Positions 1,434 through 20,675 of a stretch of 21,403 nt of DNA are shown piece after piece (position 1 is the first letter of the stretch; every line of letters begins with the position of its first letter). Source of the stretch: Candidatus Aenigmatarchaeota archaeon (GTDB lineage Archaea; Aenigmatarchaeota; Aenigmatarchaeia; GW2011-AR5; JAGGXF01); the NCBI GenBank assembly GCA_029932645.1, contig JAOZPR010000001.1, forward strand, positions 21,444-42,846, in the 5' to 3' direction. The notes under the pieces are model-generated. The model did no database searches and was not told where the DNA came from. It was given only the letters and a program-made list of their open reading frames with translations. Made by a program: the position numbers and the translations under genes.

Positions 1434-3098
1434 TTAACCCCGACCTTTTTGCTGTTCATAAAGTCTTTTTATACGTTCAAGTGTGTCTGCATCTTCCGGA
1501 GCCTTGTCCTCAGGTTCCCGGATGCGCAACATGCGTGGAAATCGCAGTGCAAACCCGGATTCGTATTTCGGGCTCTTTTGTATCTCTTCATACGCGACCT
1601 CTATGACAACCTTTGGCTTTAGTCTAACCTGACCTGCCTTCTCCTCTATAACAAGTTTCTTCAGCCTTTTTGTCATGCTTCTAAACTGTTCATCTGACAG
1701 ACCTGTACCTAGCTTGCCAATAGGCACGAATCTACCGGCGTGCCGAGCACCAAGCAGAAGAGAGCCAAACCATCCTGCGCGCTTACCAGTACCCCACTCA
1801 GCGCCCATTATCACCAAATCCAATGGTTCCATTGTTGGTTTGACCTTGAGCCAATATCCGACCCGCTTGCCCGGCTGATAAGCGGCGTCGAGATTTTTAA
1901 CCATTATGCCTTCTTCTCCCATTGCCAACGATTTTTTGTAAAACTTCTTTGCCTTTTTATAATCCTTGGTTTCGATGTGTTCCACAAGAATAAACCTTTC
2001 TTTTAGTTCTTTAACAGTACTTTTGAGCTTTGTCCATCTCTTTTTCAGCGGCTCGTCCATATAATTTTTATTATCCAAATAAATCAAATCAAATAAATTT
2101 ATTTGCACGGGTGTTTCTTTTACCATTCTTTCTATATCATACTTTCTTTGTATACGCCTTGATAGGCGCTGGAACGGTAGTGGTTTTCCTGTCTTCGGGC
2201 TTATTGCAAGAGTCTCGCCCTCAACTATACAAATATCCGCACAAAGATGCCCCTGCGCCCACTCAACAAGCTCAGGGAACTGCCTCGTAACATCATCCAT
2301 TCTTCGGGAGAATATCCAAATCTTATCGCCCTTTTTATGAATTTGCACTCGGAACCCGTCTAACTTGATTTCCAGTGCTGGGTTTTTAAACTTTTCCAGC
2401 GCTGTTTTAAGATCTGGTGCCTTCTCAGCAAGCATGACCCGTATAGGCCTCCCTATCTCTACTCCCAAGCCTCCGAGTTTGTTGTCAGCAGCCATCTCTG
2501 CGACAAGACCGTAATCATTCAGGAGATTATACGCGTGTTCCACTGCAGTTGCGTCAATACCAAAACACTTGGCTATACTGTCTCTGATAATGCCCTCGGC
2601 AACACCTATTCTCATTTCGCCGAGAATTGTCCTCACCAAATATGAGGCCTCGTCAGAACCTGCACATGCCAAGAGCTCTGACACTAGGGATATCTTTCTA
2701 TCCTGGCTTCCGGCGCCCTCTATTGTGGGTAACTTCCTGAGGTTCGTAACGACCTTTTCCACGGTGAGCTCTTTTTTGCCGAGGGCCTGTTGCCTCTTGT
2801 TTTTCAAAAGCTCCTTTGCACTGAGGCCCATGTCTCCTGTTCTCCTGTAAACCTTATTGAACTCGGTTCTATTGACACCGGCAACCTTCTGCACTATCCT
2901 TTTCATCATTTTCAAAGCGATGCCCAGGTCTTTCTGTTCTGCCTTTGGAAAAACAAGTCCGGCTGACAAAAGAACGACATCCCTCAGCTCGTCTTTGTTA
3001 ACCTTGGAAAAGAATTTGCTAAGAATCTGCGTTTTCTCTAGTTTTTTTGTTGTGGATTCCAGCTGCTCATAAACCACAGCAAGTTCTTTATATAACAT
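1434..3098 (-). CDS. lig: ATP-dependent DNA ligase
   Basis: Adenylation motif EIKLDGFR, plus VEGE, FDLIY, EGIMVK, WLKVK and OB-fold LRFPR. ATG at 3098 preferred over the TTG at 3104. Confidence 0.97.
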   Translation of the reverse strand: MLYKELAVVYEQLESTTKKLEKTQILSKFFSKVNKDELRDVVLLSAGLVFPKAEQKDLGIALKMMKRIVQKVAGVNRTEFNKVYRRTGDMGLSAKELLKNKRQQALGKKELTVEKVVTNLRKLPTIEGAGSQDRKISLVSELLACAGSDEASYLVRTILGEMRIGVAEGIIRDSIAKCFGIDATAVEHAYNLLNDYGLVAEMAADNKLGGLGVEIGRPIRVMLAEKAPDLKTALEKFKNPALEIKLDGFRVQIHKKGDKIWIFSRRMDDVTRQFPELVEWAQGHLCADICIVEGETLAISPKTGKPLPFQRLSRRIQRKYDIERMVKETPVQINLFDLIYLDNKNYMDEPLKKRWTKLKSTVKELKERFILVEHIETKDYKKAKKFYKKSLAMGEEGIMVKNLDAAYQPGKRVGYWLKVKPTMEPLDLVIMGAEWGTGKRAGWFGSLLLGARHAGRFVPIGKLGTGLSDEQFRSMTKRLKKLVIEEKAGQVRLKPKVVIEVAYEEIQKSPKYESGFALRFPRMLRIREPEDKAPEDADTLERIKRLYEQQKGRG

Positions 3099-4906: not shown

Positions 4907-5106
4907 CGCTGGGAATGGGATTTTCACAAACCCTTCCTCGTTTGAGTTTCTTTGGAACATCCAAAGACCTTTCCCGCAGACCGACGCACGAAGTGCGTCA
5001 ATTCGTTTCGAAAGGGATTTGGTTTGAACCCATGCGAGCCGAAGCTCACCAGCTATTTGTTCTTGACTCCAAGCTGGCGCCTTGGACCTAACTTGGCTAT
5101 CCCAGC
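4907..5106 (-). tRNA. tRNA-Ser(GGA) with two introns: 12 nt at 37/38 (5055-5066) and 102 nt at 59/60 (4921-5022)
   Basis: Spliced sequence: GCTGGGA TA GCC AAGTTAGGTCCAA GGC G CCAGC TTGGAG|A GCTGG TGAGCTTCGGCTCGC ATGGG TTCAAA|T CCCAT TCCCAGC G. All stems pair, long variable arm, G discriminator, CCA not encoded. The T-loop intron has a strict BHB (TTCA/TGAA helix, AAC and AAT bulges); the anticodon intron has a relaxed motif. Confidence 0.92.
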
Positions 5107-5119
5107 ATCTGACAGCATT

Positions 5120-5284
5120 CTAAAACGCTTCTGCATTCTCTAGCAGCATATCTGGTATATCGTCTTTTATTTTAAATTTTAGTCTGCACCTGTGACATAT
5201 TACCTTGTTTTCTTTTTTATCGTAGTCTATGCCCTGCTTGCATTTCGGGCAGGCCAATATATCAAGCAGTTTCTTCGATATCAT
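5120..5284 (-). CDS. trm112: Trm112/YcaR-family methyltransferase activator (54 aa; not in ORF track)
   Basis: Hand translation MISKKLLDILACPKCKQGIDYDKKENKVICHRCRLKFKIKDDIPDMLLENAEAF, with the LLDILACP..C and IKDDIP.ML signatures. Confidence 0.9.
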   Translation of the reverse strand: MISKKLLDILACPKCKQGIDYDKKENKVICHRCRLKFKIKDDIPDMLLENAEAF

Positions 5285-20477: not shown

Positions 20478-20529
20478 CCCCCTTTATAACACTTAGCATA
20501 GAGTTAGCATGAGCATAATACTGATAAAT

Positions 20530-20675
20530 GCTGGGGTACCCAAGTCATGGTTCGCAGAAGAACCACTTGAATGGCCAAAGGGGCAGGTTCATTTGACTCC
20601 TAATGTGGTCAAATGATGTCATACTTAAGATCCTGTGACTTAGTGTCTGCGTGGGTTCGAATCCCATCCCCAGCA
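20530..20675 (+). tRNA. tRNA-Leu(TAA) with two non-canonical introns: 25 nt in the D-loop (20547-20571) and 35 nt at 30/31 (20588-20622)
   Basis: Spliced sequence: GCTGGGG TA CCC AAGTC|TGGCCAAA GGG G CAGG|A CTTAAGA TCCTG TGACTTAGTGTCTGC GTGGG TTCGAAT CCCAT CCCCAGC A. Both introns form BHB motifs; usual position between rpoD and rpl18e. Confidence 0.94.

Follow-up and report, generated by a model that had tools for sequence, protein, structure and literature searches.

A T-loop intron of an archaeal tRNA-Ser(GGA) gene and the two dispersed repeats in its body

The tRNA-Ser(GGA) gene and its T-loop intron

The window analysed here, a stretch of 21,403 nt from the genome of a Candidatus Aenigmatarchaeota archaeon (GCA_029932645.1), carries a tRNA-Ser(GGA) gene with two introns on its minus strand (positions 4907–5106; anticodon at 5070–5068, read from the sequence). 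Upstream lies an ORF for a Trm112-like protein of 54 amino acids (5120–5284, minus strand; PF03966, E 2.9e-11) and downstream the gene for ribosomal protein L10e/L16 (4314–4841, minus strand; PF00252, E 4.4e-31); in G001, one of two relatives from the same family, tRNA-Ser(GGA) likewise sits between a Trm112-like ORF and rpl10e. The gene is called by neither ARAGORN nor Rfam. After excision of 5066–5055 and 5022–4921, the mature tRNA is 86 nt long and of type II, with discriminator base G; CCA is not encoded. The smaller intron (12 nt, 5055–5066, minus strand, also read from the sequence) is a canonical 37/38 intron with a relaxed motif, in which three of the four central pairs are present. 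EndA (PF01974, E 3.9e-28) and RtcB (PF01139, E 1.1e-173) are both encoded in the genome. Elsewhere in the window, a tRNA-Leu(TAA) gene on the plus strand (20529–20675) contains introns of 24 and 35 nt and is missed by ARAGORN at default settings, and a weak match to the PreQ1 riboswitch (3032–3083, minus strand; 24.5 bits, E 0.37), inside a DNA ligase frame, is likely due to chance.

The larger intron (102 nt, 4921–5022, minus strand) interrupts the T-loop at position 59/60, which is listed among the sites of non-canonical BHB introns in the available text of PMC4090602. Its coordinates and sequence are as an earlier, sequence-only reading of this DNA had given them. A motif scan of the T arm and intron found exactly one strict hBHBh' motif, with the central helix TTCA/TGAA, an inner helix of 7 bp and an outer helix of 5 bp. 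The 4-bp central helix, the two 3-nt bulges and the flanking helices are those of an archaeal non-canonical BHB intron, and excision at the bulges restores a 7-nt T-loop and a 5-bp T-stem. The 3' strand of the central helix (4926–4923) and two bulge bases make up positions 4921–4926; the adjoining closing arm (4927–4937) is the complement of the left end of the intron and provides the 3' strand of the inner helix. Contigs from three runs in three studies (X2, X3 and X6, of which X2 may itself be the source) span the intron, and since not one letter differs between them, the intron is not an assembly error.

Both hairpins named in the earlier reading, as well as the alternative CCTTTC/GAAAGG pairing, are present in the intron, which folds with a z-score of −2.81 (1 of 200 shuffles was equally stable). 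Nearest-neighbour folding predicts that the second hairpin forms in this RNA (p 0.76–1.0) and gives the BHB central helix a p of about 0.3–0.45 without protein. The intron had also been described as unusually long, 3–8 times longer than the other introns. This is true within the window, where the others measure 12, 24 and 35 nt, but not across the genome, where a scan (with one extra match that fell outside a tRNA, and with anticodons read by eye) found that tRNA genes for Gln, Gly, Arg and Asp hold six further 59/60 introns, with lengths of 78, 84, 84, 84, 91 and 91 nt. Over 91 nt, no base separates the intron of Gly(TCC) from that of Asp(GTC); between the introns of Gln(CTG) and Arg(CCT), 2 of 84 nt are different. 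Most of the tRNA genes seen in this genome (G000) have one to three introns, many of them composed of related hairpin repeats. The anticodon intron of tRNA-Ser(TGA) (G000:C10:21676-21939) has box C/D-like motifs in common with the second family relative, G002 (3' end of L033).

Two dispersed repeats, E and M

A gene-based search of relatives returned many matches that cover pieces of the intron alone, and these define two repeats, E and M. The elements of E, which is about 45 nt long, are in order C(A/C)AAT; part I, a tract of pyrimidines; a short loop; part II, a tract of purines; TCTT(T/G)G; a spacer of 8 nt; and part III, a tract rich in A. In the 102-nt intron, on the minus strand, the left end of E and part I occupy 5010–5022 and include the 5' strand of the BHB inner helix; part II and the basal arm follow at 4961–4973; and part III (4947–4956), the predicted third strand, is the mirror of part II at the spacing of 8 nt seen in the family. 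The short loop of E is replaced by the 36-nt module M (4974–5009; core hairpin 4999–4983). M has the form of a GAC...GTC hairpin, and its flank is conserved. A K-turn in M was considered and rejected by eye: the core resembles a C/D stem but one sheared G-A pair is missing.

Across the order, E gave 128 matches and the control none: 87 in a three-A form, spread over 26 of 70 genomes, and 41 in a four-A form, over 19 of 70, with zero control matches to either form. M gave 69 matches in 28 of the 70 genomes (control 1), located in introns, intergenic regions and reading frames. In a sample of the phylum, E was present in 20 of 251 genomes, 15 of which belong to the same order, and among the 80 E-bearing records listed, 38 are Aenigmatarchaeota. 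Single true copies occur in one Micrarchaeia record and one Woesearchaeota record; the bacterial matches, and the one match among viral contigs, are without part III, and the phage records searched gave no match. In this genome, the profile search located all clear copies of E and M in tRNA introns, with M once antisense, and found no free copy of either repeat above control level. One relative has up to 19 copies of E, many of them outside introns. The composite of E and M recurs in relatives: in G041 it is intergenic, and in G005, G024, G038 and G060 it lies within tRNA introns. An earlier suggestion that the intron might be a small mobile insert is thereby supported, its interior consisting of two dispersed repeats that occur in other tRNA introns and outside introns. 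In the D-loop intron of a tRNA-Val gene of G038 (L013), E carries one M-type hairpin nested inside another.

Where does E sit? By automatic classing of 125 distinct copies (127 less two that were mis-parsed), sense copies are found in T-loop introns (21), in D-loop introns (33), in anticodon or other tRNA introns (11) and in 5S rRNA introns (2). Of the remainder, one lies antisense within a tRNA, 6 come directly after a tRNA, 36 abut an opposite-strand ATG and 15 were left unclassed. Orientation within structural RNA genes is thus 67 sense to 1 antisense, with 15 copies unclassed and with an antisense test that was narrower than the sense test. In the two 5S rRNA genes (L047, G033:C36; L166, G010:C10), an insert of the E type breaks a conserved loop; its ends resemble a BHB, which makes these inserts candidate EndA-spliced introns.

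Conserved pairing and the triplex pattern of E

E has a basal helix, in which the arm on the 3' side of part II pairs with the bases on the 5' side of part I. Its two variable positions hold Watson-Crick pairs in 123 and 120 of 124 copies, against shuffle maxima of 89 and 70, and the copy in the 102-nt intron obeys the rule by way of a rare C-G pair (nearest-neighbour folding of this single RNA does not predict the basal helix). Among 118 parsed copies, the number of A residues in part III tracks that of the first two tracts in 116; it does not track the arm with which part III would pair in the second hairpin of the earlier reading (Fisher p 0.51). The spacer before part III is 8 nt in 112 of the 118. 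Part III also matches part I in the same direction, and this match reaches into the loop, with 66 and 59 agreements in 106 copies at the first two loop positions, where shuffles reach at most 50 and 45; at the third loop position (43, shuffle maximum 46) it is not significant. Since the copies of E are kin, these shuffle controls overstate the significance. With that qualification, covariation across the family supports a putative long hairpin with a mirror third strand. It does not support the second hairpin of the sequence-only reading.

This pattern is the signature of an intrastrand triple helix, the triplex itself being predicted. At the level of the family, the tracts covary as base triples would; canonical triples do not run along the whole stem, and the loops are not uniformly short, for CCC precedes part III in 93 of 114 copies, where a standard triplex wants G, and the first loop of the present copy holds 36 nt. 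The intron strand of E has the order of a purine-motif triplex and the opposite strand that of a pyrimidine-motif one, with tandem G-A in place of the U-C mismatches. Because purine-motif triplexes cannot form in RNA, according to the available text of PMC4666352, the fold probably belongs to DNA or to the other strand. The prediction is thus that the three-part symmetry of E forms a triple helix within one strand, and that this strand is more likely the one opposite to the intron RNA.

A published parallel in arrangement is the bacterial repeat group BoxC / PIT / TM-ECO (Holder et al. 2015), described in the available text of PMC4666352 as having pyrimidine, purine and third mirror tracts on one strand, with variable loops and no associated transposase found. 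E differs in being A/T-rich, in its extra basal helix and in the CCC of its third tract, and here the triplex is predicted. Where E favours one strand, both within the introns of tRNA and 5S genes and ahead of start codons, TM-ECO is described in that text as intergenic and without strand bias, and the 36-nt insert in the first loop of the present copy is a further departure from what is described there.

Turnover and origin of the intron

The site of the intron is variable among orthologous genes. A pattern search of the 70 genomes of the order gave 17 matches, of which four were dropped, one because it lacked a T arm and three because they lay in coding DNA; with one gene added from the gene-based search (L011), the Ser(GGA) set numbers 14. 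Seven of these genes have no T-loop insert, and the inserts in the others measure 11, 37, 50, 54, 102, 239 and 359 nt, those of 11, 37, 239 and 359 nt having been compared by eye alone. The 50-nt intron, from the same genus, has an unrelated interior (z 0.9), and the 54-nt intron, from the same family, shows a slight likeness (z 3.1). A comparison with orthologues had been proposed as a check on the intron, and it reveals no conservation at the site. The best relative of the 102-nt intron, which has no near-identical twin in its own assembly, is instead an 89-nt intron in tRNA-Ser(CGA) of G002 (z 7.4, among 14 other distinct T-loop introns, 13 of them scored). By eye, this intron has lost part II, with 13–17 nt gone and a GGTCT repeat at the bounds; in the same genome, the Leu(TAG) intron is without about 40 nt between two copies of AACTT. 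The Asp intron of G001, in alignment, shares its ends with the 102-nt intron and is missing module M. Among related introns, then, conservation is confined to the ends and does not extend to the interior. Two of the large Ser(GGA) inserts (L064 in G022, 359 nt; L065 in G032, 239 nt) are rich in A and T and have a relaxed BHB as well as a long inverted repeat at their termini, and the 11-nt insert (L066 in G030) comes from the same genus as these two.

Does the excised intron have a function of its own? It had been proposed as a conserved functional circular RNA, and a stable circle acting as a guide, decoy or protein scaffold would fit the stable fold, the nearly uniform orientation of E copies in RNA genes and the observation of archaeal tRNA introns as circles, one of which, from the tRNA-Trp of Sulfolobus, is stable despite lacking consensus C/D boxes (available text of PMC3326292). 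The same text, however, describes most such circles as relatively unstable, and the variation among orthologues, a lack of conservation that the earlier reading had itself named as refuting its proposal, speaks against a conserved RNA at this locus, together with the loss of large parts of the interior in close family members. Nor does the intron look like a known guide. As the earlier reading had noted, the C/D boxes are lacking (CTGA is absent, and box C occurs only with two mismatches), ACA is absent from both the linear and the circular sequence, whereas a box H/ACA guide would carry it 3' of a hairpin, and Rfam, which had been suggested as a check, has no match over the intron. A genome search for copies and antisense targets did find one, and the 22-nt match on contig C14 turned out to be M again, there within the D-loop intron of a tRNA, rather than a partner for pairing; in this assembly, which is without 16S and 23S rRNA, nothing else was beyond chance. 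An endless ORF on the 102-nt circle was also rejected: one sense frame with an ATG is free of stops, but so it is in 17.7% of shuffles, and the closest relative, of 89 nt, has none, so the frame is attributed to chance. A circle with its own function is accordingly very improbable. Equally part of the earlier reading was a nesting of introns. On this view, M would be a second intron removed beforehand by its own BHB. Five weak BHB-like registers with flanking helices of 2 bp do occur inside the intron (shuffle mean 0.9), and one of them brackets M; this register, however, has two G-U pairs in its central helix and would break five Watson-Crick pairs of predicted p 0.85, no strict internal motif with flanking helices of at least 3 bp is present, and the same motif was not seen by eye in other composites of E and M. 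That M is an intron in its own right is thus very improbable.

How, then, did the intron arrive? One route would lead through RNA, with an intron cut out by EndA being re-ligated or reverse-spliced into the T-loop of another tRNA and then written back to DNA. A preponderance of sense copies of E, as seen within the introns of tRNA and 5S genes, is what such a route would leave behind, and so are whole introns, ends included, that are identical in different tRNA genes, and the few free copies of E with flanking direct repeats of 10–21 bp. On the other hand, most free copies are without the closing arm and are found beside start codons, on the other strand, M is found in both orientations within the introns of this genome, and selection after insertion can by itself produce a bias in orientation. 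Arrival by way of RNA is therefore considered improbable. The likely reading is that the 102-nt sequence is a strict BHB intron at 59/60, consisting of E with M in its loop, which was probably copied into this gene recently and is probably kept only since its ends allow excision by EndA. Because its body is made of two repeats common to other tRNA introns and to intergenic sites of related genomes, it is likely a disposable passenger and not a dedicated circular RNA. The observations behind this reading are the BHB motif, the EndA and RtcB genes, the repeat make-up, introns of the same family in different types of tRNA and the turnover at the site. Counting against it are the absence of free copies of E and M above control level in this genome, the absence of a Y1/HUH transposase from this genome and its two family relatives, the rarity of flanking direct repeats around E, the CCC before part III, the folding predicted for this RNA, with its second hairpin and weak BHB central helix, and the sense bias of E, which would also fit the RNA route or a role at the RNA level.

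The passenger reading suggests a course of events. At the DNA level, E would be copied from the T-loop of one tRNA gene, a conserved region, into that of another; insertion of M would then enlarge the resulting introns, and deletions between short direct repeats would shorten them. EndA would make the cuts, and RtcB would join the exons and probably circularise the intron, the circle being a by-product. Families of related BHB introns in different types of tRNA are known from the Thermoproteales (Fujishima et al. 2010, as summarised in PMC4090602 and bioRxiv 10.64898/2026.10.13.758758), where the mechanism is given as unknown and thought to act on DNA. These families, as summarised, have closely related introns across tRNA types and at non-canonical positions, 59/60 included, and the sister introns of the present genome (91 of 91 and 82 of 84 nt identical) are alike in this. 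The composite body, the presence of the repeats outside introns as well, the nesting and the three-part mirror pattern set the present case apart from those summaries. The tRNA-Trp box C/D intron of euryarchaea is likewise long (about 100 nt) and internally structured, as described in the available text of PMC4090602 and PMC3326292; unlike it, the 102-nt intron has neither box C nor box D, lies at 59/60 rather than 37/38 and is not conserved in orthologues of its gene. Non-canonical BHB introns and transposed intron families are thus already known; a search of literature available without subscription returned no paper on E, M or an intron body that is at once built of repeats, nested and patterned like a triplex.

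In the preprint cited above (10.64898/2026.10.13.758758), as far as its available text goes, the arrival of introns in archaeal tRNA genes is treated as an open question, with no general route found in Asgard archaea. Here, the parts of an intron lead back to repeats that occur outside introns as well, and close relatives have variants with insertions and deletions; this makes the question testable. The intron is in that sense a clue to how such introns likely spread. It also carries a warning, that long and well-folded tRNA introns in these genomes are not thereby functional RNAs.

A broader reading, which is possible but doubtful, is that E is a non-autonomous mobile element whose triple-helix fold serves as the copying signal. 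Such an element would seed introns, spliced by EndA, in tRNA and 5S genes, would provide start codons on the opposite strand with purine-rich leaders and would take up cargo such as M, and the 102-nt intron would be a snapshot of a general route of intron gain and enlargement in archaeal tRNA genes. A general target-site duplication for E was rejected, as direct repeats of at least 10 bp flank only 5 of 119 copies (control 1). Four free copies (L144, L181, L114 and L273) do have flanking direct repeats of 10–21 bp, some of which duplicate the end of a tRNA, and these may be target-site duplications.

Among known repeats of this kind are the REP and BIME elements with RAYT transposases, short palindromic repeats that combine into mosaics. 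E and M are like them in being short repeats that form mosaics, and unlike them in the preference of their copies for introns of RNA genes and in the distribution of the transposase. A Y1/HUH transposase (PF01797) was not found in the present genome or its two family relatives (G000–G002), although it is present in 24 of 70 genomes; it is carried by 14 of 29 genomes with E as opposed to 10 of 41 without, and no E lies within or beside the eight Y1 loci that were read. As a mobiliser of E, the Y1 transposase was rejected, given these eight loci and its absence from E-rich genomes such as G005, G010, G024, G040 and G067. (REP and BIME are described in the introduction of PMC4666352.)

The 36 of 125 copies directly before start codons on the opposite strand (for instance L097, L098 and L106) have a purine-rich tract resembling an RBS inside the predicted triple helix, and E in this position could affect translation. 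The ATGs beside E open real frames in 34 of 35 cases, compared with 6 of 70 for other frames, and the closing arm is present in 5 of 44 E copies with CAT just upstream.
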